The notes beneath the pieces are model-generated. The model was not told where the DNA came from and searched no databases. It saw only the letters and a program-made list of their open reading frames with translations. Of a DNA stretch of 64,000 nucleotides, positions 7,096-29,003 are shown piece after piece; the stretch's first letter is position 1, and the number at the start of each line of letters is the position of its first letter. The position numbers and the translations under genes were made by a program. The DNA comes from Escherichia coli (GTDB taxonomy: Bacteria > Pseudomonadota > Gammaproteobacteria > Enterobacterales > Enterobacteriaceae), in NCBI RefSeq assembly GCF_044324785.1, contig NZ_CP172127.1, one strand, 5' to 3'.

Positions 7096-7469
7096 ACTCC
7101 CATTCATACTTTGTAACAAGCCGGTGCTTTCCCCCGGCTTGTTACCCTCTTGAAATATCCCACTAGTAATCATGCTTACTTAAGTCAAATTAACTACGCA
7201 ATTAACCACACTTAGTTAAACAGTCATAAATCCCCTAATAAAAATGTATGAATATGAAAAAACATACGATATTCGCTGTCACCGAAAAATAATTACGATG
7301 GGCTATACTCTTCTGAAGAACAGTAGCGTAGATTGAAACTGTCCTAAGTCGCTTATTTGTTTTCAGTATATCTTCATATTTCAGGAGAATATGGTGCAGT
7401 TAGTCGATCTCGCACGTTGCGTTTCGTTTTGATTCCGTCTGCTTTCCCAGCCTTATAAGGGTGTGAATT

Positions 7470-8852: not shown

Positions 8853-8876
8853 ATGCGCCAGGATGCAGAGGTAATC

Positions 8877-11312: not shown

Positions 11313-11533
11313 AACGTGACACTGTCACTTAAATACTGTGATTTCAGCTACGATTCCGGGAGATTCCTTCCTTAACTTCCCCTCTTGCACCAAAACTGCA
11401 CTACGCTGCACAAATGTTGATCAAAAGTTAAAAAATATAACTTTAAGCCAGCATTCTGGCGCTTATCCCGGCATGGCATGAGATCTGCATAAGCGGAAAG
11501 CGCAGCAATTTTTGTCTTATACAGGAACCGTTT

Positions 11534-12115
11534 ATGTCGGATACCACCGAACTGGTTGATTTAGCCGTGATCTTCCCTGATCTGGAGATCGAACTGAAAT
11601 ACGCCTGCGCGGATAACATCACAGGTAAAGCTATTTATCAGCAAGCGCGTTGTCTGTTACACAAGGATGCGATTACCGCGCTGGCGAAAAGTATCAGCAT
11701 CGCCCAGCTGTCAGGCTTACAACTGGTGATTTACGATGCGTATCGCCCACAACAAGCACAGGCGATGTTGTGGCAAGCCTGCCCAGACCCGCAATATGTT
11801 GTTGATGTGACGGTCGGTTCTAATCACAGCCGTGGCACGGCGATCGACCTGACGCTTCGTGATGAGCACGGGAACATCCTGGATATGGGCGCAGAGTTCG
11901 ATGAAATGCACGAACGTTCCCATGCTTATCACCCTTCCGTCCCGCCCGCTGCTCAGCGCAATCGGCTGTTGCTGAATGCGATTATGACTGGCGGTGGCTT
12001 TGTCGGTATCCCGAGCGAATGGTGGCACTTCGAATTACCCCAGGCAGCGAGTTACCCACTACTCGCTGATCAATTCACCTGTTTTATATCCCCTGGCACA
12101 CAGCACGCCAGTTAA
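11534..12115 (+). CDS. ddpX: D-Ala-D-Ala dipeptidase, 193 aa
   Basis: Full-length match to DdpX (VanX-like); first gene of the ddp operon. Confidence 0.9.
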   Translation: MSDTTELVDLAVIFPDLEIELKYACADNITGKAIYQQARCLLHKDAITALAKSISIAQLSGLQLVIYDAYRPQQAQAMLWQACPDPQYVVDVTVGSNHSRGTAIDLTLRDEHGNILDMGAEFDEMHERSHAYHPSVPPAAQRNRLLLNAIMTGGGFVGIPSEWWHFELPQAASYPLLADQFTCFISPGTQHAS

Positions 12116-12128
12116 TCAGGAAACTGTC

Positions 12129-13679
12129 ATGAAGAGATCGATATCGTTTCGTCCTACATTGCTCGCGATCGTCCTTGCCACAACAATGCCGGTTGCGCAC
12201 GCCGCCGTACCGAAAGATATGCTGGTGATCGGTAAAGCTGCCGACCCACAAACCCTCGACCCAGCGGTGACAATTGATAATAACGACTGGACAGTGACCT
12301 ACCCGTCTTATCAGCGACTGGTTCAGTACAAAACGGACGGTGATAAAGGCTCAACAGACGTTGAAGGCGATCTGGCAAGTAGCTGGAAAGCGTCTGACGA
12401 TCAAAAAGAGTGGACGTTCACCCTGAAGGACAATGCTAAATTTGCCGATGGCACACCTGTCACTGCCGAAGCAGTAAAACTCTCTTTTGAGCGGTTACTA
12501 AAAATCGGCCAGGGGCCAGCAGAAGCATTTCCCAAAGATTTAAAGATTGATGCTCCCGACGAACATACGGTGAAGTTTACCCTTAGCCAGCCATTCGCAC
12601 CGTTCCTCTATACGCTGGCGAATGACGGTGCATCCATTATCAATCCGGCGGTCTTAAAGGAACATGCAGCGGATGATGCTCGCGGCTTCCTCGCGCAAAA
12701 TACCGCAGGTTCCGGACCATTTATGCTGAAAAGCTGGCAAAAAGGTCAGCAATTAGTTCTGGTGCCAAATCCGCATTACCCCGGCAATAAACCGAACTTT
12801 AAGCGAGTATCGGTAAAAATTATCGGTGAAAGTGCCTCCCGTCGCCTGCAGCTCTCCCGTGGTGATATTGACATTGCCGATGCGCTGCCAGTGGATCAAC
12901 TCAACGCCCTGAAGCAGGAAAACAAAGTCAATGTGGCAGAGTATCCGTCACTGCGCGTCACCTATCTGTATCTGAATAACAGCAAAGCGCCACTTAATCA
13001 GGCGGATCTGCGTCGGGCCATTTCCTGGTCTACCGATTATCAGGGTATGGTTAACGGCATTCTGAGTGGTAACGGAAAACAAATGCGCGGCCCGATTCCG
13101 GAAGGCATGTGGGGATACGATGCGACGGCAATGCAATACAACCATGACGAAACGAAAGCCAAAGCCGAATGGGATAAAGTGACGAGCAAACCCACCAGCC
13201 TGACGTTTCTCTATTCTGATAATGATCCGAACTGGGAGCCTATTGCTCTGGCGACACAATCCAGCCTCAACAAGCTGGGCATCAATGTGAAGCTGGAAAA
13301 ACTGGCGAACGCCACCATGCGCGACAGAGTGGGTAAAGGTGATTACGACATTGCGATTGGCAACTGGAGTCCGGATTTTGCCGACCCGTATATGTTTATG
13401 AATTACTGGTTTGAGTCAGACAAAAAAGGTCTGCCGGGTAACCGCTCGTTCTATGAAAACAGTGAGGTCGATAAGTTACTGCGCAATGCGCTAGCGACCA
13501 CCGACCAGACGCAGCGTACCCGGGACTACCAGCAGGCACAGAAAATCGTCATTGATGACGCTGCTTATGTGTACCTGTTCCAGAAAAACTACCAACTGGC
13601 GATGAACAAAGAGGTGAAAGGCTTTGTGTTCAATCCCATGCTGGAACAGGTCTTCAATATCAATACCATGAGTAAATAA
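12129..13679 (+). CDS. ddpA: Periplasmic D,D-dipeptide-binding protein of ABC transporter, 516 aa
   Basis: Starts MKRSISFRPTLLAIVLATTMPVAHA (Sec signal peptide); family-5 solute-binding protein; the track ORF starts further upstream at an alternative codon overlapping ddpX, which I regard as non-native. Confidence 0.9.
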   Translation: MKRSISFRPTLLAIVLATTMPVAHAAVPKDMLVIGKAADPQTLDPAVTIDNNDWTVTYPSYQRLVQYKTDGDKGSTDVEGDLASSWKASDDQKEWTFTLKDNAKFADGTPVTAEAVKLSFERLLKIGQGPAEAFPKDLKIDAPDEHTVKFTLSQPFAPFLYTLANDGASIINPAVLKEHAADDARGFLAQNTAGSGPFMLKSWQKGQQLVLVPNPHYPGNKPNFKRVSVKIIGESASRRLQLSRGDIDIADALPVDQLNALKQENKVNVAEYPSLRVTYLYLNNSKAPLNQADLRRAISWSTDYQGMVNGILSGNGKQMRGPIPEGMWGYDATAMQYNHDETKAKAEWDKVTSKPTSLTFLYSDNDPNWEPIALATQSSLNKLGINVKLEKLANATMRDRVGKGDYDIAIGNWSPDFADPYMFMNYWFESDKKGLPGNRSFYENSEVDKLLRNALATTDQTQRTRDYQQAQKIVIDDAAYVYLFQKNYQLAMNKEVKGFVFNPMLEQVFNINTMSK

Positions 13680-13680
13680 C

Positions 13681-14703
13681 GTGACCTTCTGGAGTATTTT
13701 ACGCCAACGCTGCTGGGGGCTGGTGCTCGTGGTGGCGGGCGTCTGCGTGATTACGTTTATTATCTCGCACCTGATCCCCGGCGATCCGGCGCGGTTACTG
13801 GCGGGTGACCGCGCCAGCGATGCTATCGTGGATAATATTCGCCAGCAACTGGGACTGGACCAGCCACTGTACGTACAGTTTTACCGCTACGTCAGCGACC
13901 TGTTTCAGGGTGACCTGGGAACATCCATTCGTACCGGGCGTCCGGTGCTGGAAGAGTTGCGCATATTTTTCCCGGCGACGCTGGAACTGGCTTTTTGTGC
14001 CCTGCTGCTGGCACTCCTGATTGGCATCCCGCTGGGCATACTCTCTGCAGTCTGGCGAAATCGCTGGCTGGATCATCTGGTGCGAATAATGGCCATTACC
14101 GGAATCTCCACACCTGCGTTCTGGCTTGGGCTGGGTGTCATTGTGCTGTTTTATGGTCATCTGCAAATTCTTCCCGGCGGCGGAAGGCTTGATGACTGGC
14201 TGGATCCACCAACGCACGTTACCGGCTTTTATCTGCTCGATGCGCTGCTTGAAGGTAACGGTGAAGTCTTCTTCAATGCGTTGCAACATCTCATCTTACC
14301 GGCATTAACGCTGGCGTTCGTTCACCTGGGAATTGTCGCTCGCCAGATCCGCTCAGCTATGCTGGAACAATTGAGTGAAGATTACATTCGTACCGCCCGG
14401 GCCAGCGGCTTGCCCGGCTGGTATATTGTTTTATGTTATGCGCTACCCAATGCGTTGATCCCCTCGATTACCGTATTGGGACTGGCGCTGGGCGATTTGT
14501 TGTATGGCGCAGTGCTCACCGAAACCGTTTTTGCCTGGCCTGGAATGGGTGCATGGGTAGTAACATCAATACAGGCGCTCGACTTCCCGGCAGTGATGGG
14601 CTTTGCCGTCGTGGTTTCATTTGCTTATGTGCTGGTCAACCTGGTGGTGGATTTGCTCTATTTGTGGATTGATCCGCGTATCGGACGTGGAGGTGATGAA
14701 TGA
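13681..14703 (+). CDS. ddpB: ABC transporter permease, 340 aa
   Basis: GTG start 1 nt after the ddpA stop; DppB-like permease; matches DdpB. Confidence 0.88.
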   Translation: MTFWSILRQRCWGLVLVVAGVCVITFIISHLIPGDPARLLAGDRASDAIVDNIRQQLGLDQPLYVQFYRYVSDLFQGDLGTSIRTGRPVLEELRIFFPATLELAFCALLLALLIGIPLGILSAVWRNRWLDHLVRIMAITGISTPAFWLGLGVIVLFYGHLQILPGGGRLDDWLDPPTHVTGFYLLDALLEGNGEVFFNALQHLILPALTLAFVHLGIVARQIRSAMLEQLSEDYIRTARASGLPGWYIVLCYALPNALIPSITVLGLALGDLLYGAVLTETVFAWPGMGAWVVTSIQALDFPAVMGFAVVVSFAYVLVNLVVDLLYLWIDPRIGRGGDE

Positions 14704-15596
14704 TGCTAAGCGAGGAAACGTCCGTCGTACGCCCACCAAAACAAACGCGATTTAACGGTGCAAAACTGGTATGGATGCTGAAAGGCAGTCCGCTCACCGT
14801 GACCGGCGCAGTCATCATTGTATTAATGCTACTGATGATGATTTTTTCACCGTGGCTGGCGACGCATGATCCCAACGCCATTGATTTAACCGCCCGCCTT
14901 TTGCCGCCTTCTGCGGCGCACTGGTTTGGCACCGATGAAGTGGGACGCGATCTGTTTAGCCGCGTACTGGTCGGCAGTCAGCAATCAATTCTCGCCGGAT
15001 TAGTGGTGGTCGCCATTGCGGGTATGATTGGTTCGCTACTCGGGTGTCTATCCGGTGTGCTTGGCGGACGCGCAGACGCCATCATCATGCGCATCATGGA
15101 CATTATGCTGTCGATTCCTTCGCTGGTGCTGACAATGGCGCTGGCTGCCGCACTTGGACCGAGTTTGTTTAACGCCATGCTGGCGATTGCTATCGTGCGT
15201 ATCCCGTTTTATGTGCGCCTGGCGCGGGGGCAAACATTAGTTGTTCGCCAGTACACTTACGTTCAGGCGGCGAAAACCTTTGGTGCGTCACGCTGGCATC
15301 TGATCAACTGGCATATTTTACGTAACTCCCTGCCGCCGCTGATTGTGCAGGCATCGCTGGATATTGGTAGCGCGATTTTAATGGCCGCCACGTTGGGATT
15401 TATTGGCCTGGGTGCTCAACAACCGAGTGCTGAATGGGGGGCGATGGTAGCGAATGGTCGCAACTATGTGCTCGATCAATGGTGGTATTGCGCATTTCCG
15501 GGGGCAGCGATTTTGCTTACCGCCGTCGGGTTTAATCTCTTTGGTGATGGTATTCGCGATCTGCTTGACCCGAAAGCAGGAGGAAAGCAGTCATGA
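14700..15596 (+). CDS. ddpC: ABC transporter permease, 298 aa
   Basis: Start overlaps the ddpB stop (ATGA coupling); DppC-like permease. Confidence 0.88.
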   Translation: MMLSEETSVVRPPKQTRFNGAKLVWMLKGSPLTVTGAVIIVLMLLMMIFSPWLATHDPNAIDLTARLLPPSAAHWFGTDEVGRDLFSRVLVGSQQSILAGLVVVAIAGMIGSLLGCLSGVLGGRADAIIMRIMDIMLSIPSLVLTMALAAALGPSLFNAMLAIAIVRIPFYVRLARGQTLVVRQYTYVQAAKTFGASRWHLINWHILRNSLPPLIVQASLDIGSAILMAATLGFIGLGAQQPSAEWGAMVANGRNYVLDQWWYCAFPGAAILLTAVGFNLFGDGIRDLLDPKAGGKQS

Positions 15597-16579
15597 CCCA
15601 ACCCGTTCTGGACATTCAACAGCTGCATTTGAGTTTCCCCGGTTTTAACGGTGATGTTCACGCGCTCAACAATGTGTCCTTGCAGATTAACCGCGGTGAA
15701 ATTGTCGGTCTGGTGGGAGAATCCGGCTCAGGTAAATCAGTCACTGCAATGTTGATTATGCGTCTGCTACCGACGGGCAGTTATTGCGTACATCGGGGGC
15801 AGATTTCACTGCTGGGAGACGATGTTCTTAACGCTCGGGAAAAACAGCTTCGTCAGTGGCGCGGCGCACGAGTGGCGATGATCTTTCAGGAACCGATGAC
15901 CGCCCTTAATCCGACACGTCGAATAGGTCTTCAGATGATGGACGTGATCCGCCATCATCAACCAATAAGTCGTCGGGAAGCCAGAGCTAAAGCGATTGCC
16001 CTGCTGGAAGAAATGCAAATCCCGGATGCCGTGGAAGTTATGTCGCGCTATCCGTTTGAGCTTTCAGGTGGTATGCGACAGCGGGTAATGATTGCGCTGG
16101 CATTCTCCTGCGAGCCGCAATTGATTATTGCCGACGAACCGACTACGGCGCTGGACGTCACGGTACAGTTGCTGGTACTGCGTCTGCTTAAACATAAAGC
16201 CCGCGCCAGTGGAACTGCGGTACTGTTCATCAGCCATGATATGGCCGTGGTGTCGCAACTGTGCGATAGCGTTTACGTGATGTATGCCGGAAGCGTGATT
16301 GAGAGCGGCGTGACGGCAGACGTTATCCATCATCCCCGGCATCCGTATACCATTGGTTTGCTGCAATGCGCACCGGAACATGGAATACCGCGCCAGCCAT
16401 TACCCGCCATTCCAGGGACGGTACCAAACCTCACCCATTTGCCTGACGGCTGCGCTTTTCGCGATCGTTGCTATGCGGCAGGTGCACAGTGTGAAAACGT
16501 CCCGGCGCTGACAGCGTGTGGTGACAACAACCACCGCTGCGCCTGTTGGTATCCTCAGCAGGAGGTCATTAGTGTCTGA
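15593..16579 (+). CDS. ddpD: ABC transporter ATP-binding protein, 328 aa
   Basis: Walker A GESGSGKS; start overlaps the ddpC stop. Confidence 0.88.
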   Translation: MTQPVLDIQQLHLSFPGFNGDVHALNNVSLQINRGEIVGLVGESGSGKSVTAMLIMRLLPTGSYCVHRGQISLLGDDVLNAREKQLRQWRGARVAMIFQEPMTALNPTRRIGLQMMDVIRHHQPISRREARAKAIALLEEMQIPDAVEVMSRYPFELSGGMRQRVMIALAFSCEPQLIIADEPTTALDVTVQLLVLRLLKHKARASGTAVLFISHDMAVVSQLCDSVYVMYAGSVIESGVTADVIHHPRHPYTIGLLQCAPEHGIPRQPLPAIPGTVPNLTHLPDGCAFRDRCYAAGAQCENVPALTACGDNNHRCACWYPQQEVISV

Positions 16580-17498
16580 TACGTTATTAACGTTACGCGA
16601 CGTCCATATCAATTTCCCGGCCCGAAAAAACTGGCTTGGTAAAACTACGGAACATGTTCATGCCATCAATGGTATTGATTTACAGATCCGTCGTGGTGAA
16701 ACCTTAGGGATCGTCGGTGAGTCAGGCTGCGGCAAAAGCACCCTCGCACAGCTTTTAATGGGTATGCTGCAACCTAGCCACGGGCAGTACATCCGTTCAG
16801 GATCACAACGCATTATGCAGATGGTGTTTCAGGACCCGCTCTCTTCGCTCAATCCGCGCTTACCGGTGTGGCGCATCATCACAGAACCGCTCTGGATTGC
16901 TAAGCGTAGTAGTGAACAACAGCGGCGAGCGTTGGCAGAGGAGCTGGCTGTGCAGGTGGGTATTCGTCCGGAGTATCTCGACCGCTTGCCTCATGCGTTC
17001 TCTGGCGGGCAGCGGCAACGTATCGCCATTGCCAGAGCACTCTCTTCGCAGCCTGACGTGATTGTGCTTGATGAGCCAACCTCGGCGCTGGATATCTCCG
17101 TGCAGGCGCAGATCCTCAATTTACTGGTAACGCTACAGGAAAATCGCGAGCTGACTTATGTGCTGATTTCACACAATGTCTCGGTGATACGTCATGTGAG
17201 CGATCGGGTGGCGGTGATGTATCTCGGGCAGATTGTGGAACTAGGAGACGCGCAACAGGTGCTAACGGCTCCGGCACATCCGTACACCCGATTATTGCTG
17301 GACTCCCTCCCCGCCATTGATAAACCGCTGGAGGAAGAATGGGCATTACGTAAAACGGATCTACCAGGAAACCGTACGTTGCCACAAGGCTGTTTTTTCC
17401 GCGAACGCTGCCCTCTGGCAACCCACGGATGTGAAGTCCGGCAATCATTAGCAATAAGGGAGGACGGACGTGAGATCCGGTGCTGGCGGGCGCTGTAG
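16572..17498 (+). CDS. ddpF: ABC transporter ATP-binding protein, 308 aa
   Basis: Likely GTG start (VSDTLLTLRDVH...) overlapping the ddpD stop; Walker A GESGCGKST; the track ORF extends 18 codons upstream. Confidence 0.85.
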   Translation: MSDTLLTLRDVHINFPARKNWLGKTTEHVHAINGIDLQIRRGETLGIVGESGCGKSTLAQLLMGMLQPSHGQYIRSGSQRIMQMVFQDPLSSLNPRLPVWRIITEPLWIAKRSSEQQRRALAEELAVQVGIRPEYLDRLPHAFSGGQRQRIAIARALSSQPDVIVLDEPTSALDISVQAQILNLLVTLQENRELTYVLISHNVSVIRHVSDRVAVMYLGQIVELGDAQQVLTAPAHPYTRLLLDSLPAIDKPLEEEWALRKTDLPGNRTLPQGCFFRERCPLATHGCEVRQSLAIREDGREIRCWRAL

Positions 17499-17534
17499 GA
17501 CGCGGCATCCGGCTATTGCATGTCTGCGGAAACG

Positions 17535-18425
17535 TTATGCGTCATAGGTTTTTTTTAACGTTTCCATCAACGCCTGCGCCGCAGTAGAAAGCTTATGGTG
17601 TGACGAACGCAGTACGCCTACTCGTCGCTCAATCACTGGATTATCCAGTTCCAGACACACTGCGCCCAGTTCGCTCATCTGCCTGCGGCACAGCGCAGGC
17701 ACAGCGCTTCCTCCCAAACCGTTTGCCACCAGCCGCCCAACCGTAACCAGTTGATGGCTTTCCAGCGCCACTTCCAGTTGCGTTCCACTTTGTGCCAACT
17801 GCTCCTCCAGCATCAACCTGACGGCTGACGGTCGCTGGAGGGTGATAAAATCGAGCGTCAGCAAATCCCGCCAACTCACGCGTTGCCGATTTGCCAGTCG
17901 TGAATCGGCTGGAACAATAGCGACAAACCGATCCACGCCCAGTGGGGTAAAATGCACATGGCCGCAATAGTCAGGTTCAAAGGCAATACCCATCTCCACA
18001 CGCCCTTCGCTCACCATTTCGATCACCTGCTCATTCACCACATCGTGCACGGTGACATTAATCCCTGAATAACAATCGCGGAAGGTTTTCAGCACCGGAG
18101 GCAGAACGTTGGCTGCAAATGACGGCATCGCTGCCACCGAGACTTTGCCCCGCCTGAGCGTGAATCGCTGACGCATGGCCTCCTCAGTGTTATCCCAGTC
18201 AGCCAGCAAAGGCCGTGCCATCGACAATAGCGTTTCCCCCTCCTGGGTTAATGTCACTTTTCGCGTAGTACGCAGCAGTAAAGCGCCCCCTAAGGCATCT
18301 TCCAGTCCTTTAATGGCAAGACTTAGCGCAGGCTGCGACATATTCAGCCGTTCACTGGCATGGGCAAAGTTCAGAGTGTGAGCTACCGCTAAAAACGCGC
18401 GTAACTGTTTGATGCTCATTTTCAT
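17535..18425 (-). CDS. LysR-family transcriptional regulator, 296 aa, divergent from the ketone-body operon
   Basis: N-terminal HTH (MKMSIKQLRAFLAVAHTLNFAHASERLNMSQPALSLAIKGLE) plus LysR substrate-binding fold; divergently oriented 140 bp from the next operon. Confidence 0.85.
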   Translation of the reverse strand: MKMSIKQLRAFLAVAHTLNFAHASERLNMSQPALSLAIKGLEDALGGALLLRTTRKVTLTQEGETLLSMARPLLADWDNTEEAMRQRFTLRRGKVSVAAMPSFAANVLPPVLKTFRDCYSGINVTVHDVVNEQVIEMVSEGRVEMGIAFEPDYCGHVHFTPLGVDRFVAIVPADSRLANRQRVSWRDLLTLDFITLQRPSAVRLMLEEQLAQSGTQLEVALESHQLVTVGRLVANGLGGSAVPALCRRQMSELGAVCLELDNPVIERRVGVLRSSHHKLSTAAQALMETLKKTYDA

Positions 18426-18566
18426 CTGGCACTCCGTTAACCTACTGAATACATTTAATTAACATTATATTGATAAATAATACAAATGAATGAGTCACAA
18501 ATTTAAAATTAACAAATCATTTTTTGCCCTTAATGATGTTGAAAAGGACAACTGGAGGGCAACTGT

Positions 18567-19274
18567 ATGGCTGGGTTGGATAAACGGGTCGCTACGTATC
18601 ACGAGGCGCTTGAAGGACTTACCAATGAGATGACGATTCTGGCAGGAGGTTTTGGCCTGTGCGGCATCCCGGAGAATCTGATTGCTGAAGTTCGCCACCG
18701 TGGAGTAACCGGATTAACGGTGGTTTCCAATAACTGTGGCGTAGATGGTTTTGGACTGGGTGTACTACTGGAAAGCCGACAGATCCGTAAAGTCGTCGCT
18801 TCTTATGTTGGCGAGAATGCTTTGTTTGAAAAACAGGTGCTTAACGGCGAACTGGAGGCGATTCTCACACCACAAGGAACCCTGGCAGAACAACTGCGCG
18901 CAGGCGGCGCGGGTATCCCGGCGTTCTTTACTGCCACCGGTTACGGTACTCCCGTTGCCGAAGGGAAAGAAGTCCGCGAATTCAACGGTCGCCCGTACAT
19001 CATGGAACAGGCTATCACCGGTGATTTTGCCCTGGTCAAAGGCTGGAAAGCCGACTGGTACGGCAACGTGATTTATCGTCATACCGCGCAAAACTTCAAC
19101 CCACTGATGGCGGCTGCCGGAAAAATCACCGTGGTGGAAGTGGAAGAAATCGTGCCACCTGGTGAACTTGATCCTGCCGCTATCCATACCCCGGGGATTT
19201 TTGTTAATCGCGTCATTCAGGGGCAATTTGAAAAACGCATTGAACAACGCACCCTTAGCCGCAAAGGAGCCTGA
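18567..19274 (+). CDS. 3-oxoacid CoA-transferase subunit A, 235 aa
   Basis: Conserved [12 protein letters not shown] motif of CoA-transferase family I alpha subunits. Confidence 0.85.
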
Positions 19275-19276
19275 CC

Positions 19277-19933
19277 ATGTTAACCCGTGAACAAATGGCG
19301 ATGCGAGTCGCCCGCGAATTGCGCGATGGCTATTACGTCAATCTCGGCATTGGTATCCCGACCCTGGTGGCAAACTACATTCCTGACGGGATGGATGTGA
19401 TGTTGCAGTCAGAAAACGGTTTGCTGGGAATGGGCGCATTTCCTACGGAAGACGAACTGGACGCCGACATGATTAATGCCGGTAAACAAACCGTTACCGC
19501 GCGGAAAGGCGCGGCAATTTTCGATTCGGCGCAATCATTCGCCATGATCCGTGGCGGTCATGTGGATCTGACTGTACTTGGCGCATTTGAAGTGGATGTG
19601 AATGGCAACATTGCCTCATGGATGATCCCCGGCAAGATGGTTAAAGGCATGGGCGGTGCCATGGATCTGGTTGCCGGTGCCGAGAATATTATTGTGGTAA
19701 TGACCCACGCCTCCAAATCCGGCGAATCCAAACTGCTTCCTGACTGTACCCTTCCATTGACCGGCGCCGGATGCATCAAACGCGTCTTAACCGACCTTGC
19801 TCTGCTGGAAATTGCTGACGGAGCTTTCATTCTGCGCGAGCGCGCGCCGGGAATCAGCGTTGCGGAAATCATCGCCAAAACCGCCGGTAAGTTGTTTGTG
19901 CCGGAACATGTCCCGGAAATGCAATTCAACTGA
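19277..19933 (+). CDS. 3-oxoacid CoA-transferase subunit B, 218 aa
   Basis: Beta-subunit signature with catalytic glutamate context (LQSENGLLGMG); starts 3 bp after the subunit A stop. Confidence 0.85.
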   Translation: MLTREQMAMRVARELRDGYYVNLGIGIPTLVANYIPDGMDVMLQSENGLLGMGAFPTEDELDADMINAGKQTVTARKGAAIFDSAQSFAMIRGGHVDLTVLGAFEVDVNGNIASWMIPGKMVKGMGGAMDLVAGAENIIVVMTHASKSGESKLLPDCTLPLTGAGCIKRVLTDLALLEIADGAFILRERAPGISVAEIIAKTAGKLFVPEHVPEMQFN

Positions 19934-19942
19934 GGAATCACC

Positions 19943-21148
19943 ATGCAGGACGTTGTTATTGTTGCCGCTACGCGCACACCGATTGGCTGTTTTCATGGCG
20001 CTCTCGCCTCACTTTCTGCGGTTGATCTCGGCGCTGCCACCATCCGTTCATTGCTGGAGAAAACAGCACTTGCAGCAGAACAGATCGACGAAGTGATTTT
20101 TGGTCAGGTCCTGACTGCCGGAAGCGGACAAAATCCGGCACGGCAATCGGCGCTCAAAGCCGGGTTAAGCCACGATACACCCGCCGTTACCATCAACCTG
20201 GTATGTGGTTCCGGTCTGAAAGCAGTACACCAGGCCGTACAGGCGATCCGTTGCGGTGATGCACAGATAATTATCGCAGGTGGCCAGGAAAGCATGAGTA
20301 ACGCGCCCTATTTTATTGATGGCGCACGGGCAGGTTTACGCCTCGGGCATACCAGCATGAAAGACAGCGTGGTGCATGACGGACTATGGGACGCTTTCAA
20401 TGATTACCACATGGGCATTACTGCAGAAAACCTGGCGCAAAAATATGCCATCAGTCGCGAGCGACAGGACACATTCGCGCTACGTTCTCAGCAAAAAGCC
20501 GCTGCCGCAATGGAAGCCGGGCGCTTTGCAGACGAAATTACTCCGGTCAGCGTACCACAAGGTAAAAAACCACCACGCAGGGTAAATACCGACGAACAAC
20601 CACGTTCCGGGACGCAACTGGAAAAACTAGCACAACTGAAACCGGCCTTTCTTCCGGGGGCGGGAAGCGTCACCGCAGGAAATGCTTCTTCCATCAATGA
20701 TGGTGCCGCCGCAGTCATGTTAATGCGCGCCAGCAAAGCTGCCGAACTTGGCCTCCCAGTGCTGGCTCGGGTGGCTGGTTATGCCGTTTCTGGCGTCGAT
20801 CCTGCCTTTATGGGCATTGGTCCGGTCGCCGCTACCCGCGAATGTCTTAAGCGTTGCGGATGGACGCTGGAAGATATTGATCTTATTGAAGCCAACGAGG
20901 CTTTCGCAGCGCAGGCGCTGGCCGTTGGCGACGAACTGAACTGGGATTGCGACAAAGTGAATGTTAACGGCGGCGCAATCGCACTTGGGCATCCTATTGG
21001 CGCTTCCGGTTGCCGCATTCTGGTCACTCTCATTTATGAAATGGCGCGACGTAATGCGCAAAAAGGGCTGGCGACGCTGTGCGTCGGTGGCGGTCAGGGC
21101 GTGGCGCTGACACTGGAAAGAACCACAGGAGAACACCATGCAAACTGA
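19943..21148 (+). CDS. Acetyl-CoA C-acetyltransferase (thiolase II), ~400 aa
   Basis: Thiolase motifs [11 protein letters not shown] (active-site Cys) and C-terminal [14 protein letters not shown]. Confidence 0.85.
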
Positions 21149-22061
21149 ACAATTTGCGGTACTGGGCGCCGGATTGATGGGCGTGGGGATTGCCACTCAT
21201 TTCGCCCGCTTTGGTCATGATATCTGGCTGTACGATACCGAGCAGAGCCGGATTGCAGAAATCCACGTAGTTGCAGGCGGAATTCTTGATGAGCTGATTA
21301 GCTGCGAACAGTTTACTGCCCCGGAAAAAGAGAATGTGCTTAAACGTCTGCACGGCACGACTTCTCTTGCAGACATCGCCGACTCGCAACTACTGATTGA
21401 GGCGATCCCGGAGCGACTTGAACTAAAACACGCATTATATACCGAGCTTGAAACGCTTATTTCTCCTGAGGCCATTGTCGCCAGCAATACCAGCGGTCTG
21501 CCGCCCGATGATCTGGCCGCGAAGATGCGCTACCCGCAACGACTGCTGATCGCCCATTTCTGGCATCCGCCGCACTTCATTCCACTTGTGGAGATTATCC
21601 CCGGCAGCGTTACCGAGCCAAAGCATTTGCACTGGCTGCAACACTTGCTTGTGTCACTGCAACTGGAAGCAGTGTTGCTGGATCGCGCTGCGCCAGGATT
21701 TGTCGGCAACCGTCTGCAATTTGCACTGTTGCGTGAAGCCCTGCATATCGTAAAAAGCGGCATCGCCAGTGCAGAAGTGGTGGATCAGGTGATGCGCGCC
21801 TCGCTTGGGCGACGTTATGCCATGGTCGGCCCGCTGGAGGCCGCCGACATGACCGGACTTTCGACGGTGCAGGATATTTGTCGCCATCTGCTCCCTGAAC
21901 TAGCGACTGGCAGCGACATGATGTCATTAGTTGCCGAAAAAGTGGAACGTGGAGACATCGGCGTACGTAGCGGTCAGGGATTTTACTGCTGGGATGAATC
22001 GCGGAAGCAGTACATCCAGCAGCGTCGGGAACATCAACTTCGCTTCGCCTTTAAAACATAA
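21138..22061 (+). CDS. 3-hydroxyacyl-CoA dehydrogenase (Hbd-like, NAD-binding), 307 aa
   Basis: N-terminal Rossmann motif [12 protein letters not shown]; overlaps the thiolase stop, suggesting translational coupling. Confidence 0.75.
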
Positions 22062-22106
22062 CTTCTCTCGCTGTACCCACTATAACAACGATATTGAGGA
22101 GTCCCG

Positions 22107-23498
22107 ATGAGTGTATTAATCGCCCTTGCCGCGCTTGGGCTGCTAATGCTGGCAGCCTATCGCGGATACAGCGTTATCCTTTTTGCCCCCATCGCAGCAT
22201 TAGGCGCTGTTCTTGTCACCGATCCGGGGGCCGTTGGCCCAGCATTTACCGGCCTGTTCATGGAAAAAATGGTCGGCTTCGTGAAATTGTACTTCCCGGT
22301 GTTTCTGCTCGGGGCCGTGTTCGGAAAACTGATTGAACTTTCAGGATTTTCTCGTTCGATTGTCGCTGCTGCAATCAACATTCTCGGCCGGCGGCATGCG
22401 ATTCCGGTGATTGTGCTGGTATGTGCATTACTCACCTATGGCGGAGTGTCGCTGTTTGTGGTGGCATTTGCCGTTTATCCGTTCGCGGCTGAATTGTTCC
22501 GCCAGAGTAATATCCCCAAACGGCTTATACCGGCAACGGTGGCCCTCGGAGCATTCTCTTTTACTATGGACGCTCTGCCCGGCACGCCACAAATTCAGAA
22601 CATTATTCCCACCAGTTTCTTTGGCACCAACGCCTGGGCCGCGCCGTGGCTGGGGCTTATTGGTTCACTGTTTATCATTGCCGTCGGGCTTATCTATCTG
22701 GAACGGCAGCGTCGTAAAGCACAGGCAAAAAATGAAAGTTACGGCACAGAGTTACTTAATGAACCTGAAACGCCGGACAACATCAATTTACCGAACCCAC
22801 TCATTGCGATTTCACCATTGATTCTGGTGGGGCTGTTGAACTTGTTGTTTACCTGGTGGATCCCTGTTTGGTACGGTGCGAGCCACCAACTGGAGTTGCC
22901 GGGACTTACTGCCCCGATTACCACAGATGTCGCCAAAATCACCGCAATCTGGGCCGTCGAAGCTGCGCTCATTGCCGGAATTTTGCTGGTAGTGATTTTT
23001 GGATATCGCAATATTCATGGAAGACTGGCAGAAGGAAGCCGTACAGCGGTAGGCGGCGCAATTCTGGCTGCGATGAACACCGCCTCAGAATATGGCTTCG
23101 GTGCGGTTATCGCCGCCCTACCCGGTTTTCTGGTGCTCTCAAAGGCGCTGGCCGCCATTCCTGATCCATTACTCAACGAAGCCATCAGCATCACCACACT
23201 TGCCGGAATTACCGGTTCAGCGTCCGGCGGGATGAGTATTGCTCTTGCGGCTATGTCCGACACTTTTATTGCCGCTGCGCACGCTGCCAATATTCCACTG
23301 GAAGTTTTTCACCGCGTGGCATCTATGGCCAGTGGCGGCATGGATACATTGCCCCATAACGGCGCTGTGATCACCCTGCTGGCAATTACTGGGCTGAGTC
23401 ACCGTCAGGCTTACGGCGGCATCTTCGCAATTACGATCATTAAAAGTCTGGCCGTGCTGTTTATCATCGGCGTGTACTACACCACCGGCATTGTCTAA
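22107..23498 (+). CDS. GntP-family permease (predicted 3-hydroxybutyrate/short-chain hydroxy-acid:H+ symporter), 463 aa
   Basis: Highly hydrophobic multi-pass protein with GntP-like architecture; embedded in the catabolic operon. Confidence 0.65.
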   Translation: MSVLIALAALGLLMLAAYRGYSVILFAPIAALGAVLVTDPGAVGPAFTGLFMEKMVGFVKLYFPVFLLGAVFGKLIELSGFSRSIVAAAINILGRRHAIPVIVLVCALLTYGGVSLFVVAFAVYPFAAELFRQSNIPKRLIPATVALGAFSFTMDALPGTPQIQNIIPTSFFGTNAWAAPWLGLIGSLFIIAVGLIYLERQRRKAQAKNESYGTELLNEPETPDNINLPNPLIAISPLILVGLLNLLFTWWIPVWYGASHQLELPGLTAPITTDVAKITAIWAVEAALIAGILLVVIFGYRNIHGRLAEGSRTAVGGAILAAMNTASEYGFGAVIAALPGFLVLSKALAAIPDPLLNEAISITTLAGITGSASGGMSIALAAMSDTFIAAAHAANIPLEVFHRVASMASGGMDTLPHNGAVITLLAITGLSHRQAYGGIFAITIIKSLAVLFIIGVYYTTGIV

Positions 23499-23509
23499 GG
23501 AAAATCATC

Positions 23510-24280
23510 ATGAATTTACAAGGTAAAACTGCGCTGGTGACGGGCTCCACCAGCGGTATCGGACTCGGTATTGCTCAGACACTGGCAAACGCTGGCGCGC
23601 AAGTGATCCTCAACGGCTTCGGTGATGTTGACGCGGCAATCAATGCGGTTTCTCGTATGGGTAAAACGCCTGGCTATCATGAGGCAGACCTCAGCGATGA
23701 ATCGCAAATTATCAACATGATGGCCTACGCACGGCGGGAATTTGGCGGTGTGGACATTCTGGTGAATAACGCAGGGATCCAGTATGTCTCCCCGGTTGAA
23801 TCTTTCCCTGTAGAAAAATGGAACGCCATTATCGCTATCAATCTCTCTTCTGTCTTTCACACCACGCGTCTGGCACTGCCAGAAATGCGCACTCGTAACT
23901 GGGGTCGGATCATTAACATTGCCTCTGTGCATGGGCTGGTAGCGTCGAAAGACAAATCAGCTTATGTTGCGGCAAAACATGGCGTGGTGGGACTCACAAA
24001 GACCATTGCTCTGGAAACTGCGCAGACGGGTATTACCTGCAACGCGCTCTGCCCTGGCTGGGTGCTGACGCCGCTGGTACAACAGCAGATTGATAAGCGC
24101 ATTGCGCAAGGCGAAGATGCGGAAAGCGCGCGTGACGCCTTACTGGCAGAAAAACAGCCTTCTCGTGAATTTGTGACTCCGCAACAACTGGGTGAACTGG
24201 CGCTGTTTCTCTGTTCGGATGCGGCAGCACAAGTGCGTGGGGTGGCGTGGAATATGGATGGCGGTTGGGTAGCGCAGTAA
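23510..24280 (+). CDS. D-3-hydroxybutyrate dehydrogenase (classical SDR), 256 aa
   Basis: SDR motifs TGSTSGIGLGIA (cofactor binding) and YVAAKHG (YxxxK); length and motifs typical of BdhA. Confidence 0.8.
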   Translation: MNLQGKTALVTGSTSGIGLGIAQTLANAGAQVILNGFGDVDAAINAVSRMGKTPGYHEADLSDESQIINMMAYARREFGGVDILVNNAGIQYVSPVESFPVEKWNAIIAINLSSVFHTTRLALPEMRTRNWGRIINIASVHGLVASKDKSAYVAAKHGVVGLTKTIALETAQTGITCNALCPGWVLTPLVQQQIDKRIAQGEDAESARDALLAEKQPSREFVTPQQLGELALFLCSDAAAQVRGVAWNMDGGWVAQ

Positions 24281-24286
24281 GTGTTC

Positions 24287-24308
24287 GCCGGATGACGCGT
24301 CATCCGGC
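24287..24308. repeat. Perfect 22-bp palindrome (REP-like) between the convergent dehydrogenase gene and osmC
   Basis: GCCGGATGACGCGTCATCCGGC is a perfect palindrome between two convergent stop codons; likely a bidirectional terminator or REP unit. Confidence 0.5.
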
Positions 24309-24314
24309 AACGCT

Positions 24315-24746
24315 TTACGATTTCAACTGGTAATCCAGCGTAATTTCCGCTTTCAGTACCTGTGAAACCGGACATCCTGCTTTTGCTTTCTGGATGATGC
24401 CGTCAAAGGTAGAGGCATCAATACCCGGCACCGCAACTTCACTCTTCAGTGCGATTTTCGTAATCGCAAAACCGGCATCCACTTTATCCAGCGACACATC
24501 GGCGATGGTATCAATCGATGTTGGCGTGAATCCCGTTTCCCCCAGCATTAATGAAAGCGCCATTGAGAAACATGCGGCATGCGCTGCGCCAATCAGTTCT
24601 TCAGGGTTGGTTCCTTTTTCGCCTTCAAAACGCGTGTTAAATCCATACGGCTGTTGGTTCAGCACGCCACTCTCGGTGGATACTGTTCCCTTCCCGCGTT
24701 TGATATCGCCTTCCCAGTGTGCCTGACCTTTCTTATGGATTGTCAT
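24315..24746 (-). CDS. osmC: Osmotically inducible peroxiredoxin OsmC, 143 aa
   Basis: Full-length match to OsmC (MTIHKKGQAHWEGDIKRGKG...). Confidence 0.93.
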   Translation of the reverse strand: MTIHKKGQAHWEGDIKRGKGTVSTESGVLNQQPYGFNTRFEGEKGTNPEELIGAAHAACFSMALSLMLGETGFTPTSIDTIADVSLDKVDAGFAITKIALKSEVAVPGIDASTFDGIIQKAKAGCPVSQVLKAEITLDYQLKS

Positions 24747-25090
24747 TGTTGCTCTCCTGTGGGCTTAAAAAGGAAATTATAGACTACGTGAGAAACAGCA
24801 CGAGGATAAGCAGGATATTCCGAATGAAATCCGGCGAAAACATTATCTCTGTACTTAAATTAAATTCCCACAATAGATAACAGGAAATATATGACTCAAA
24901 AGATATTGTATCAATATTAATCGATTCACACCAATAATAATCCCTATCAATATCATAGTGTTAAAATATAAAACTCATCAACCAGGACTAATCTTAACAA
25001 CGAAGCGGCAAATATTTGCCATGCTGAATGTGCTTTATAAATCTGCGATCCGTAGCAGACACCATAAATACACAGACACGGAGAATCACT

Positions 25091-27532: not shown

Positions 27533-28543
27533 ATGAAGGCTGCAGTTGTTACGAAGGATCATCATGTTGACGTTACGGATAAAACACTGCGCTCACTGAA
27601 ACATGGCGAAGCCCTGCTGAAAATGGAGTGTTGTGGTGTATGTCATACCGATCTTCATGTGAAGAATGGCGATTTTGGTGACAAAACCGGCGTAATTCTG
27701 GGCCATGAAGGTATTGGTGTGGTGGCAGAAGTTGGCCCAGGTGTCACCTCATTAAAACCAGGCGATCGTGCCAGCGTGGCGTGGTTTTACGAAGGATGCG
27801 GTCATTGCGAATACTGTAATAGTGGTAACGAAACCCTCTGCCGTTCTGTTAAAAACGCCGGATACAGCGTCGATGGCGGGATGGCTGAAGAGTGCATCGT
27901 GGTCGCCGATTACGCGGTAAAAGTGCCCGATGGCCTGGACTCGGCGGCGGCCAGCAGCATTACCTGTGCGGGAGTCACCACCTACAAAGCCGTTAAGCTG
28001 TCAAAAATTCGTCCCGGTCAGTGGATTGCTATCTACGGTCTTGGTGGACTGGGTAACCTCGCCCTGCAATACGCGAAGAATGTCTTTAACGCCAAAGTGA
28101 TCGCCATTGATGTCAATGATGAGCAGTTGAAACTGGCAACCGAAATGGGTGCAGATTTAGCGATTAACTCACGCACCGAAGACGCCGCCAAAATTGTGCA
28201 AGAAAAAACCGGTGGCGCTCACGCCGCGGTGGTGACAGCGGTAGCTAAAGCTGCGTTTAACTCGGCGGTTGATGCTGTTCGTGCAGGCGGGCGTGTTGTG
28301 GCAGTCGGTCTGCCGCCGGAGTCTATGAGCCTGGATATCCCACGGCTGGTGCTGGATGGTATTGAAGTGGTCGGTTCGCTGGTCGGCACGCGCCAGGATC
28401 TCACCGAAGCCTTCCAGTTTGCGGCCGAAGGCAAAGTGGTGCCGAAAGTCGCCCTGCGTCCGTTAGCGGACATCAACACCATCTTTACCGAGATGGAAGA
28501 AGGCAAAATCCGTGGCCGTATGGTAATTGATTTCCGCCGCTAA
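27533..28543 (+). CDS. adhP: Zinc-dependent alcohol dehydrogenase (propanol-preferring), 336 aa
   Basis: [15 protein letters not shown]...; zinc-ADH motifs (GHEGIG, CGVCHTD); SD AGGAGG upstream. Confidence 0.92.
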
Positions 28544-28688
28544 GAGGCCTTTGCTGCGACTGCCATGTTCGGGTCGCAGCATCGCACACTCTCCAACATG
28601 AAATGGCTAAATGGATTATTGTTGCGTAGGAAGGAACAATAATGATAGTGTTCCCAGTGAAGGAACGCTACTGAGAGTAAAGACACTA

Positions 28689-28973
28689 ATGAAAATGGCC
28701 AATCATCCCCGCCCGGGGGACATTATTCAGGAATCACTCGACGAACTTAATGTCAGCCTGCGCGAGTTTGCCAGAGCAATGGAAATTGCGCCCTCAACGG
28801 CAAGCCGATTGCTGACCGGAAAAGCAGCTTTGACGCCAGAAATGGCAATTAAACTTTCCGTGGTGATCGGCAGTTCGCCGCAAATGTGGCTGAATCTGCA
28901 AAACGCCTGGAGCCTGGCAGAGGCTGAAAAAACGGTGGATGTGTCGCGACTGCGCCGTCTGGTTACGCAATAA
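28689..28973 (+). CDS. yddM: XRE/HigA-like HTH DNA-binding protein, 94 aa
   Basis: HTH region ([35 protein letters not shown]); matches YddM; no intact partner toxin gene in the 145-bp upstream gap. Confidence 0.7.
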
Positions 28974-29003
28974 AAAAATGGCGCTTCTTAAAGCGCCATT
29001 TTC
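28974..29003. terminator. Bidirectional terminator between convergent yddM and fdnI
   Basis: Hairpin AATGGCGCT-TCTTA-AAGCGCCATT flanked by A-run on one side and T-run on the other. Confidence 0.55.

Follow-up and report, generated by a model that had tools for sequence, protein, structure and literature searches.

What do the seven genes that separate ddpF from osmC in some strains of Escherichia coli encode, and how did they come to be there? The block in question lies at positions 17535-24280 of a 64-kb stretch of E. coli assembly GCF_044324785.1 (contig NZ_CP172127.1), which we call the window and whose positions serve as coordinates throughout. It spans 6.8 kb and consists of seven intact open reading frames (ORFs): a gene for a LysR-type regulator and, divergent from it, genes for both subunits of a CoA-transferase, a thiolase, a dehydrogenase of the 3-hydroxyacyl-CoA dehydrogenase (HAD) family, a permease, and a 3-hydroxybutyrate dehydrogenase of the BdhA type. 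We think it likely that the block is a functional operon for the use of C4 ketone bodies under its own LysR activator, and that it has long resided between ddpF and osmC and been lost by most E. coli. This reading is carried by the gene content, by the protein families with their motifs for catalysis, by signs of purifying selection, by conservation of the promoter region, and by the distribution of the block in the population; what we propose for the substrates, for the inducer and CoA donor, and for the part played by the HAD-family enzyme is more conditional.

A predicted operon for ketone-body catabolism

A preliminary description of the window had laid out seven genes between ddpF and osmC, and the ORF list reproduces all of its coordinates to the base. 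The intergenic gaps between the + strand genes are 2, 9, −11 (an overlap), 45, and 11 nt, which is consistent with a single operon. We propose that the divergent LysR-type activator would switch this operon on and that the permease, putatively an elevator-type transporter, would import 3-hydroxybutyrate and probably acetoacetate. BdhA would oxidize (R)-3-hydroxybutyrate to acetoacetate with NAD+, and the HAD-family enzyme would most likely oxidize free (S)-3-hydroxybutyrate to the same product. The ScoAB-type transferase would pass CoA from succinyl-CoA to acetoacetate, and the thiolase would split the resulting acetoacetyl-CoA into two molecules of acetyl-CoA, which could enter the tricarboxylic acid cycle and the glyoxylate shunt. 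A complete route from 3-hydroxybutyrate or acetoacetate to acetyl-CoA, as the preliminary description had envisaged, is coherent at the level of homology. The biochemistry is textbook ketone-body use by an ordinary type of catabolic operon and involves no new kind of biology.

What identifies the three enzymes at the core of this route? The first two genes of the operon encode a 3-oxoacid CoA-transferase. Its ScoA-like subunit A (235 aa; 18567..19274, + strand) passes TIGR02429 with 244.8 bits against a cut-off of 128.5, and its ScoB-like subunit B (218 aa; 19277..19933, + strand) passes TIGR02428 with 327 bits against 243.55. Subunit B displays at residue 45 the SENG motif, which carries the catalytic Glu in family I CoA-transferases. 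Subunit A fails the AtoD equivalog NF007394 (198.9 against a cut-off of 315), and its closest solved structures are the succinyl-CoA:3-ketoacid CoA-transferases (SCOT) 3rrl and 3cdk (E~1e-91), as compared with E = 1.5e-50 for the acetate CoA-transferase alpha subunit 1k6d, which we take to be E. coli AtoD. Because the AtoD cut-off is missed and the SCOT structures are closer (E~1e-91 versus ~1e-50), the system is distinct from atoDAEB, as had been claimed. We infer that the enzyme is of the succinyl-CoA:3-ketoacid (ScoAB/SCOT) type; that succinyl-CoA is the donor is suggested by the relative similarity to these enzymes.

Next in order, the predicted acetoacetyl-CoA thiolase (acetyl-CoA C-acetyltransferase, 401 aa; 19943..21148, + strand) passes TIGR01930 (501.3 against 240.55), falls narrowly under the PRK05656 cut-off (677.9 against 688), and falls far under the PcaF model (394 against 597). 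Its catalytic motifs are in place: CGSG (Cys88), GHPIGASG (His350), and CVGGGQG (Cys380). By these comparisons the thiolase appears to be AtoB-like rather than PcaF-like, which speaks against a role in the beta-ketoadipate pathway.

The terminal gene (256 aa; 23510..24280, + strand) encodes a BdhA-like short-chain dehydrogenase/reductase (SDR). It passes two 3-hydroxybutyrate dehydrogenase cut-offs, NF009093 (371 against 258) and TIGR01963 (343.5 against 307.05), and over its full length it is near-identical to the solved 3-hydroxybutyrate dehydrogenase 5yss (E=1.4e-146) and also matches the beta-D-hydroxybutyrate dehydrogenase 2q2q (E=3.8e-116) throughout. The SDR motifs are intact, with TGSTSGIG at residue 11, NNAG at 86, Ser139-x-His141, and Tyr152-xxx-Lys156. 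The prediction of an NAD-dependent D-(R)-3-hydroxybutyrate dehydrogenase holds at the homology level.

A possible dehydrogenase for the second enantiomer

Which substrate does the HAD-family enzyme (307 aa; 21138..22061, + strand), whose start overlaps the thiolase stop by 11 nt, act upon? The preliminary description had named it a 3-hydroxyacyl-CoA dehydrogenase; the family assignment stands, but the residues that would contact CoA are replaced and the protein is nearest to a family member with a non-CoA substrate. The protein reaches the equivalog cut-off of no NCBIfam model, and all 21 models that match do so well below threshold. The best of them is FHMPC dehydrogenase (220 against a cut-off of 500), and models of the 3-hydroxyacyl-CoA type score 180.9 against 408 (PRK05808) and 199 against 347 (PRK06129). 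Similarly, the closest solved structure is 4om8, an FHMPC dehydrogenase acting on a non-CoA substrate (8e-49), as compared with 2e-39 for the clostridial 3-hydroxybutyryl-CoA dehydrogenase (Hbd) 4kug and ~1e-38 to 1e-39 for Hbd structures overall.

A HAD-family dehydrogenase of free (S)-3-hydroxycarboxylates keeps His138, Ser117, and Asn188 and lacks Lys56 and Asn221 (PMC10470551), two residues that in the clostridial enzymes touch the 2'-phosphate and the pantetheine of CoA (PMC10470551). We aligned the window protein with six orthologues, 4kug, and 4om8, using C. butyricum numbering. The window protein and all six orthologues have Ser117, His138, Glu150, and Asn188 without exception. At the CoA-contact position 56 the residue is Gln in six of these seven sequences, and at position 221 Asn is replaced by Arg in all seven, inside a motif that is invariant across genera and has small insertions in common with 4om8. 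Taken together, the non-CoA closest relative, the retained catalytic residues, and the replaced CoA contacts predict a free (S)-3-hydroxy acid as the substrate. Likewise, CsTfD of Clostridium scatologenes has the HAD fold, the catalytic His, and the Ser and Asn of stereo-recognition, and lacks Lys56 and Asn221 (PMC10470551), as does the window protein. CsTfD favours (S)- over (R)-3-hydroxybutyrate in the reverse reaction (PMC10470551); its physiological substrate is (S)-3-hydroxy-5-oxohexanoate, in phloroglucinol degradation, and the likeness to the window enzyme is drawn through the residue criterion.

The odds are roughly even, in our estimation, that the substrate of the HAD-family enzyme is a free (S)-3-hydroxy acid, with (S)-3-hydroxybutyrate as the most straightforward candidate. 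Two points count against this assignment: it draws on two residue positions and on relative similarity, and one of the orthologues, that of a divergent Escherichia labelled E. coli SCPM-O-B-8794 (L004), alone retains Lys at position 56. Could the gene instead encode a classical (S)-3-hydroxybutyryl-CoA dehydrogenase, so that (S)-3-hydroxybutyrate is activated by the CoA-transferase and then oxidized as the CoA ester? The protein belongs to the 3-hydroxyacyl-CoA dehydrogenase family, its Klebsiella orthologue contains Pfam 3HCDH_N and 3HCDH, the clostridial Hbd structures are matched at E~1e-38 to 1e-39, the catalytic Ser, His, Glu, and Asn are conserved, and a CoA-transferase and a thiolase are encoded alongside. 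However, all NCBIfam cut-offs for 3-hydroxyacyl-CoA and 3-hydroxybutyryl-CoA dehydrogenases are missed widely, the nearest solved relative uses a non-CoA substrate, and the replacements Lys56 to Gln and Asn221 to Arg follow the pattern reported for the free (S)-3-hydroxycarboxylate dehydrogenase (PMC10470551). Oxidation as the CoA ester is possible but, in our judgement, doubtful. Activity on the free acid is the likelier case, and it would complement the (R)-specific SDR enzyme by adding the second enantiomer. If this reading is right, a free-acid (S)-3-hydroxybutyrate dehydrogenase of this kind would be previously uncharacterized in proteobacteria. An (S)-3-hydroxybutyrate dehydrogenase of Desulfotomaculum ruminis would offer a precedent, but a search of the literature for it returned nothing.

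The HAD-family gene is missing from the cassette of Enterobacter sp. MGH 24 (L009). We also note that in Pluralibacter gergoviae ATCC 33028 (L018) the gene is split over two frames (9031-9459 and 9446-9934 of that locus), as would arise from a frameshift in a pseudogene or from an error in sequencing.

A permease overlooked by current models

The permease gene (22107..23498, + strand) encodes a predicted secondary transporter of 463 aa that RefSeq labels 'GntP family permease.' The preliminary description had made the same assignment, which is borne out through relatives and fold but not by any direct Pfam or NCBIfam match. Against Pfam the window protein finds nothing better than E=0.015, and that to an unrelated domain of unknown function (DUF); against the NCBIfam models it finds no match. 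An exhaustive search recovered 3,276 cluster representatives as relatives at E<=1e-3. When 40 diverse full-length relatives from the resulting alignment (A3; 31-70% identity) were examined, 27 matched GntP_permease PF02447 at E<=1e-3, the best at 9e-17.

An AlphaFold2 model computed from alignment A3 has a pLDDT of 92.1 and a pTM of 0.89; an earlier alignment, A2, was shallow and gave a model with a mean pLDDT of 42, which was discarded. In the PDB the A3 model resembles the solved elevator-type transporters MleN, TRAP SiaQM, YdaH, VcINDY, and NaS1, which we take to be members of the ion-transporter (IT) superfamily. In the AFDB it resembles entries labelled GntP permease, H+/gluconate symporter, and D-beta-hydroxybutyrate permease, with TM scores of 0.75-0.92. 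Identity is 76-79% between the window permease and those encoded directly upstream of bdh in Pseudomonas, and 89% between it and the Klebsiella permease, whose cluster comprises 4,763 member sequences. The predicted picture is of a divergent GntP/IT-superfamily subfamily that current hidden Markov models overlook, its GntP link running via relatives and the modelled fold only.

The regulator and the divergent promoter region

The LysR-type regulator (296 aa; 17535..18425, − strand) is matched over its full length by 52 NCBIfam LysR models, none of which reaches its equivalog cut-off, and its 296-aa Klebsiella orthologue contains Pfam HTH_1 and LysR_substrate. The preliminary description had it as divergent, and indeed the gene is separated from the operon by a 141-bp spacer (18426..18566). 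The regulator is under purifying selection relative to the divergent Escherichia (ratio of nonsynonymous to synonymous divergence, dN/dS, of ~0.03). We predict that it is the activator of the divergent operon.

The spacer itself is a candidate promoter and operator region, distinguished by a sigma-70-like site and by conservation across genera. Its length is 139-142 bp in all Enterobacterales examined, where its sequence is strongly conserved; by genus the conservation is strong in E. coli, Citrobacter, Enterobacter, and Pluralibacter and partial in Azomonas. The best-conserved portion, at ~18489-18523, overlaps the −35 element of a candidate promoter made up of TTAACA (18509-18514), a 17-nt spacer, and AATGAT (18532-18537). 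The position of this conserved portion over the −35 element suits a putative activator-binding site. Two T-N11-A candidates, at 18502 and 18450, are weak, with four of six dyad pairs each. Consensus scans returned no excess over shuffled sequence (5 promoter-like sites against 6.6 in shuffles, and 6 terminator-like sites against 9.3), and we use only the one promoter-like site that falls in the conserved intergenic block.

At the other end of the operon, a palindromic hairpin with the core GCCGGATGACGCGTCATCCGGC lies between the convergent bdh and osmC genes (24277..24318). Its fold energy of −24.3 kcal/mol (z = −5.25) was matched by none of 200 shuffles, and it is probably a terminator shared by the two genes.

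Finally, the C-terminus of the LysR protein varies within E. coli as a result of a 1-nt indel (window 17516-17537), an extra G at 17518-17519 on the + strand, just 5' of a run of T at 17520-17527. The 296-aa form is found in the window, ECC-1470, the O145:H28 and O166:H15 strains, and Klebsiella; a 303-aa form is found in PCN033 and 19KM1776.

Three alleles at one junction

How widespread is the block? The left flank is ddpF (16572..17498, + strand), the last gene of the ddp D-Ala-D-Ala dipeptide operon, whose product is 98-99% identical in amino acid sequence to the annotated DdpF of K-12 and of carrier strains. The right flank is osmC (24315..24746, − strand), which scores 200.8 on TIGR03562 against a cut-off of 85.8 and is annotated as osmC in every compared genome. 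That these two core genes are neighbours in K-12, as the preliminary description had it, is correct: in MG1655 the block is missing and the whole ddpF-osmC spacing is 55 bp. Counting the block as present when megablast covered at least 80% of the query, we found it in 230 of 5,426 complete E. coli genomes (4.2%), chromosomal in every case, and absent from K-12. It had been taken for strain-variable, and it is accessory in E. coli.

The K-12-type empty junction occurs in 3,965 of the 5,426 genomes. A third allele is seen in ST131/B2 genomes, which are without the ddpXABCDF operon as well as the block, so that dosP directly abuts osmC; in E. coli ST131 strain 2822 (L003), for example, locus positions 6434-9454 correspond to window ~11500-24314. 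Some 1,230 of the 5,426 genomes have neither an occupied nor a K-12-type empty junction, and the majority of these lack ddp, as does ST131. The carriers include PCN033, ECC-1470, and O145:H28 enterohemorrhagic E. coli (EHEC) and O166:H15 strains, and the RefSeq annotation of carrier strains shows this same set of seven. Models of defence systems have no match.

A probable old resident rather than an acquired island

Was the block gained by some E. coli or lost by most? The preliminary description had spoken of a metabolic island. The patchy distribution in the species agrees with that term, but acquisition of foreign DNA, which it implies, is not supported: base composition, the lack of mobility genes, synteny in outgroups, and synonymous divergence (dS) speak against it. 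The block has a GC content of 0.539 and a GC3 of 0.545, as compared with 0.520 and 0.575 for its flanks, and the per-gene codon distances of the block lie in the same range as those of the flanks. The comparison of GC content and codon usage that had been suggested as a check on foreign origin thus reveals no atypical composition. The ORF list contains no integrase or transposase, the 64-kb window contains no tRNA gene, and an Rfam scan finds nothing in or beside the block.

In a comparison across genera, for which 80 loci were drawn from a scan of genome contigs, four Citrobacter species and the divergent Escherichia (86-97% nucleotide identity to the window) have the seven genes in the same order and in the same ddpF-osmC interval. 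Relative to this Escherichia, dS (Nei-Gojobori) is 0.25-0.44 for the genes of the block and 0.11-0.59 for flanking core genes; relative to Citrobacter, both block and flanks are saturated at about 1.1 and above. In both comparisons dS of the block equals that of the flanks. For all seven genes dN/dS relative to the divergent Escherichia is 0.03-0.12, indicating purifying selection. Native composition, the same locus in outgroups, and dS equal to that of the flanks together argue that the block is as old as its neighbourhood, and the empty state of K-12 is best read as a loss. Moreover, strains that are not related share exactly the same 55 bp at the empty junction, which points to one deletion that then spread.

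The alternative is that the block is a genomic island recently gained from another genus, such as Citrobacter or Klebsiella. Its sporadic occurrence (4.2% of complete genomes, in several lineages and on differing flank backgrounds) is what such an island would produce, and imperfect direct repeats of 15 bp stand at both ends: a REP-like 15-mer, GACGCGGCATCCGGC, at the left junction (17499..17513) matches at 14 of 15 positions a REP-like 15-mer at the right junction (24294-24308), within the bdh-osmC hairpin. Furthermore, Klebsiella has the cassette at another locus, beside apparent bud genes, which indicates that it moved at some point in the history of the Enterobacterales. Recent gain nevertheless sits poorly with the native GC, GC3, and codon usage, with the lack of integrase, transposase, and tRNA genes, and with the common ddpF-osmC location and flank-like dS in Citrobacter and the divergent Escherichia. 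No E. coli plasmid carries a copy; the only such records are four from Klebsiella, at ~73% identity, two of which are chromosome-sized. The E. coli and Citrobacter blocks are only 78.5% identical in nucleotide sequence, and no Citrobacter-like allele is found among the E. coli genomes, with a single record at 80-90% standing aside. A recent gain is therefore improbable.

Several points weigh against the reading of an old, functional, LysR-controlled operon and should be considered together. First, dS relative to Citrobacter exceeds 1 and is saturated, so that this comparison alone would be compatible with an ancient transfer. Second, a clean deletion from the occupied allele would not yield the K-12 spacer: the final 22 bp of the spacer are common to that allele (the end of the hairpin region), but for the first 33 bp no clear counterpart is seen there. 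A simple deletion mediated by the 15-bp flanking repeats was considered and does not explain the empty site. Third, the divergent spacer contains short inverted repeats only, and no convincing T-N11-A dyad was found in it. Fourth, the listed carriers presumably span different phylogroups, an assumption made from strain names and not from a core-genome tree. Finally, we found in the literature on E. coli no description of the block and no experiment on any carrier. Since the junction is indecisive, we take the direction of the event from outgroup synteny and dS.

Dynamics within E. coli

If the block is ancestral, how is it distributed so unevenly? Across tiles of the window, the block is 99.7-100% identical to that of ECC-1470 or O145:H28, as against 96-98% in the flanks. 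Similarly, ECC-1470 and O145:H28 differ at 0-4 positions per 500 bp within the block and at ~1-2% outside it. Compared with the empty-site strain 2011C-3911, ECC-1470 shows 0-2 differences per 500 bp in the distal flanks; at the junctions the values are 30/500 for the last 500 bp of ddpF and 18/500 for osmC. Alleles are also mosaic. The thiolase gene exists in two forms ~2.3% apart, and of the 23 differences private to the window 15 are clustered in a short patch of 420 bp in the permease gene (22494..22910), apparently a recombination tract; nine of these 15 match the divergent allele of 2013C-4282. The near-identity of the block amid divergent flanks, together with these mosaics, suggests that lineages exchange the occupied allele by homologous recombination and that the breakpoints fall close to the junctions.

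We propose that the cassette, common to Citrobacter and the divergent Escherichia, is old in the ddpF-osmC interval and would persist in E. coli as a presence/absence polymorphism in which one deletion allele now predominates, while the occupied allele appears to move between lineages by homologous recombination. Acquisition as a foreign island is not supported.

The sequence at the junctions is unusually divergent between strains, with 17-32 differences per 500 bp at 17000-17498 and 18-25 at 24315-24800, as against 0-2 in the distal flanks of the same strain pairs. Such divergence may reflect breakpoints of recombination, or else old haplotypes in linkage with presence or absence of the block. 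A tentative extension of our proposal, which we would not favour at present, is that the block is a two-enantiomer module, with the SDR enzyme for (R) and the HAD-family enzyme for (S), and that the old polymorphism is kept by niche-dependent selection and not by drift. Access to host ketone bodies is an example of such selection, and the junction divergence would fit long-lived alleles.

Individual carriers have been altered further. In BEC1-S17-ESBL-07 (L095, locus 8608-9393) an independent deletion runs from mid-permease through maeA and ends before adhP, removing the 3' two-thirds of the permease gene, bdh, osmC, bdm, sra, and maeA. In Z1323HEC0108 (H87) the block comes in two pieces that together span 8,031 bp, suggesting an insertion of ~1.2 kb. 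One might see in these two alleles, in the LysR C-terminal frameshift variant, and in the loss of the block from most E. coli the signs of a decaying, non-functional remnant, but with all seven window ORFs full length relative to their Klebsiella and Citrobacter orthologues, dN/dS at 0.03-0.12, catalytic motifs intact, and the promoter region conserved, we consider this very improbable.

Related systems

The cassette is not confined to E. coli. In Citrobacter, where it also lies between ddpF and osmC, its proteins are 77-96% identical to those of the window. In Klebsiella pneumoniae, where it appears to be common, the gene order is the same (proteins of 296, 235, 218, 393, 307, 464, and 256 aa), but the cassette stands beside apparent bud acetoin/butanediol genes and not at ddpF-osmC. 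It is also found in Pluralibacter and Azomonas.

Closest in organization among characterized systems is P. aeruginosa, in which dhcAB-atoB-PA2002 forms an operon under the LysR-type regulator DhcR (PMC6235884, PMC3602303). Viewed over PA1998-PA2003 (dhcR, dhcA, dhcB, atoB, PA2002/atoE, bdhA), the gene order is that of the window, except that the window has an additional HAD-family gene between thiolase and permease; the comparison is one of gene order. PA2003 corresponds to bdhA. The six-gene form without the HAD-family gene, in the P. aeruginosa order, is found in Enterobacter sp. MGH 24. Unlike our reading of the window, the P. aeruginosa operon has been studied in the context of carnitine breakdown.

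Does the E. coli cassette then serve carnitine catabolism, with the HAD-family enzyme as a carnitine dehydrogenase and the CoA-transferase acting on 3-dehydrocarnitine or its products? The common order of LysR gene, CoA-transferase A and B, thiolase, and permease in dhcR/dhcAB-atoB-PA2002 (PMC6235884), the reported response of DhcR to 3-dehydrocarnitine (PMC3602303), and the membership of carnitine dehydrogenase in the HAD family all lend themselves to this idea. On the NCBIfam carnitine dehydrogenase models, however, the window protein scores only 112 against 414 and 142 against 592, and the block lacks the beta-keto-acid cleavage enzyme that such a route needs (PMC12482172). By homology it contains what appears to be a bona fide 3-hydroxybutyrate dehydrogenase, and even the Pseudomonas CoA-transferase most plausibly handles released acetoacetate, the same chemistry as proposed here. 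A study of carnitine in Citrobacter concerns other genes (FadIJ, KCE) and not this cassette (PMC12482172). We regard a role in carnitine breakdown as highly unlikely.

In P. putida, fitness data link related genes to 3-hydroxybutyrate catabolism. In random barcode transposon sequencing (RB-TnSeq) on 1,3-butanediol, which is oxidized to 3-hydroxybutyrate, mutants in PP_3073, the D-3-hydroxybutyrate dehydrogenase, had a fitness value of −2.5; the value was −0.9 for PP_3074 (bhbP), the permease of the same operon, and −2.9 and −3.0 for the 3-oxoacid CoA-transferase PP_3122-3 (bioRxiv 10.1101/2020.07.04.188060). The set PP_3073-PP_3075 (hbdH, bhbP, and a sigma-54 regulator) plus PP_3122-3 (atoAB) includes a permease-dehydrogenase pair of the same families as in the window; in P. 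putida a sigma-54 activator takes the place of the LysR regulator, and CoA-transferase and thiolase are encoded elsewhere. We infer by description only that PP_3073-PP_3074 is one of the Pseudomonas permease-bdh pairs, in which BdhA is 69-74% identical to that of the window and the permease 76-79%, as given above. Most Pseudomonas loci examined contain this pair only. In most fluorescens-group loci (among L012-L083), paired dipeptide-type ABC ATPases lie ~2.6-3.5 kb upstream of the permease. They are 35-45% identical to ddpD/ddpF, an echo of the ddpF adjacency that may be coincidence.

Within E. coli the obvious comparison is with atoSC-atoDAEB, a system for short-chain fatty acids and acetoacetate, which likewise combines a family I CoA-transferase, a thiolase, and a transporter for acetoacetate. 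In atoDAEB, however, control is by the two-component system AtoSC in place of a LysR regulator. The block has a SCOT-type transferase and a transporter from a family other than that of AtoE, and it adds two dehydrogenases to this chemistry, so that 3-hydroxybutyrate can enter.

Other features of the window

Three other features of the window lie beyond osmC. At 34987-38835 an intact porin ORF of 366 aa is followed by two ORFs of ~420 aa. At this position PCN033 and 19KM1776 have an intact porin ('ompC') and annotated leucine-rich-repeat (LRR) proteins, and K-12 and ECC-1470 have in their place just one LRR gene and yddL, a porin pseudogene. Between strains, tiles of the porin region are either absent or show 82-97% identity; for tile 38001-39000 the identity to each compared strain is 92.5-95%. 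The adhP-yddM spacer (28001-29000) shows 94-96.5% identity to all compared E. coli. A RelE/ParE-family toxin gene upstream of yddM, which encodes the HigA antitoxin, is intact in 2013C-4282 and frameshifted in ST131; the region is a decaying toxin-antitoxin locus. Finally, a SECIS_3 element at 32974-33032 (− strand) inside fdnG scores 84.3 bits against a gathering score of 63, and its place there is what the selenocysteine codon of formate dehydrogenase-N would lead one to expect; across the 64-kb window no other Rfam family attains its gathering score.

Implications

What would this locus mean for E. coli? If carriers grow on 3-hydroxybutyrate and acetoacetate, then about one in 25 E. coli strains could draw on a carbon source unavailable to K-12 and to most clinical lineages. 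Carriers include O145:H28 EHEC as well as reported swine extraintestinal pathogenic E. coli (ExPEC) and bovine mastitis isolates. (R)-3-hydroxybutyrate occurs in hosts as a ketone body and in bacteria as the monomer that makes up polyhydroxybutyrate, and if the proposal is true the trait could alter fitness in ketotic hosts, in neonates, and in the environment. For annotation, the locus presents a 'GntP family permease' that is invisible to current Pfam and NCBIfam models and a '3-hydroxyacyl-CoA dehydrogenase family protein' that is probably without a CoA-ester substrate. More broadly, a locus that looks like a strain-specific island seems here to be ancestral DNA in the process of being lost, which urges caution in pangenome studies that equate accessory with acquired.

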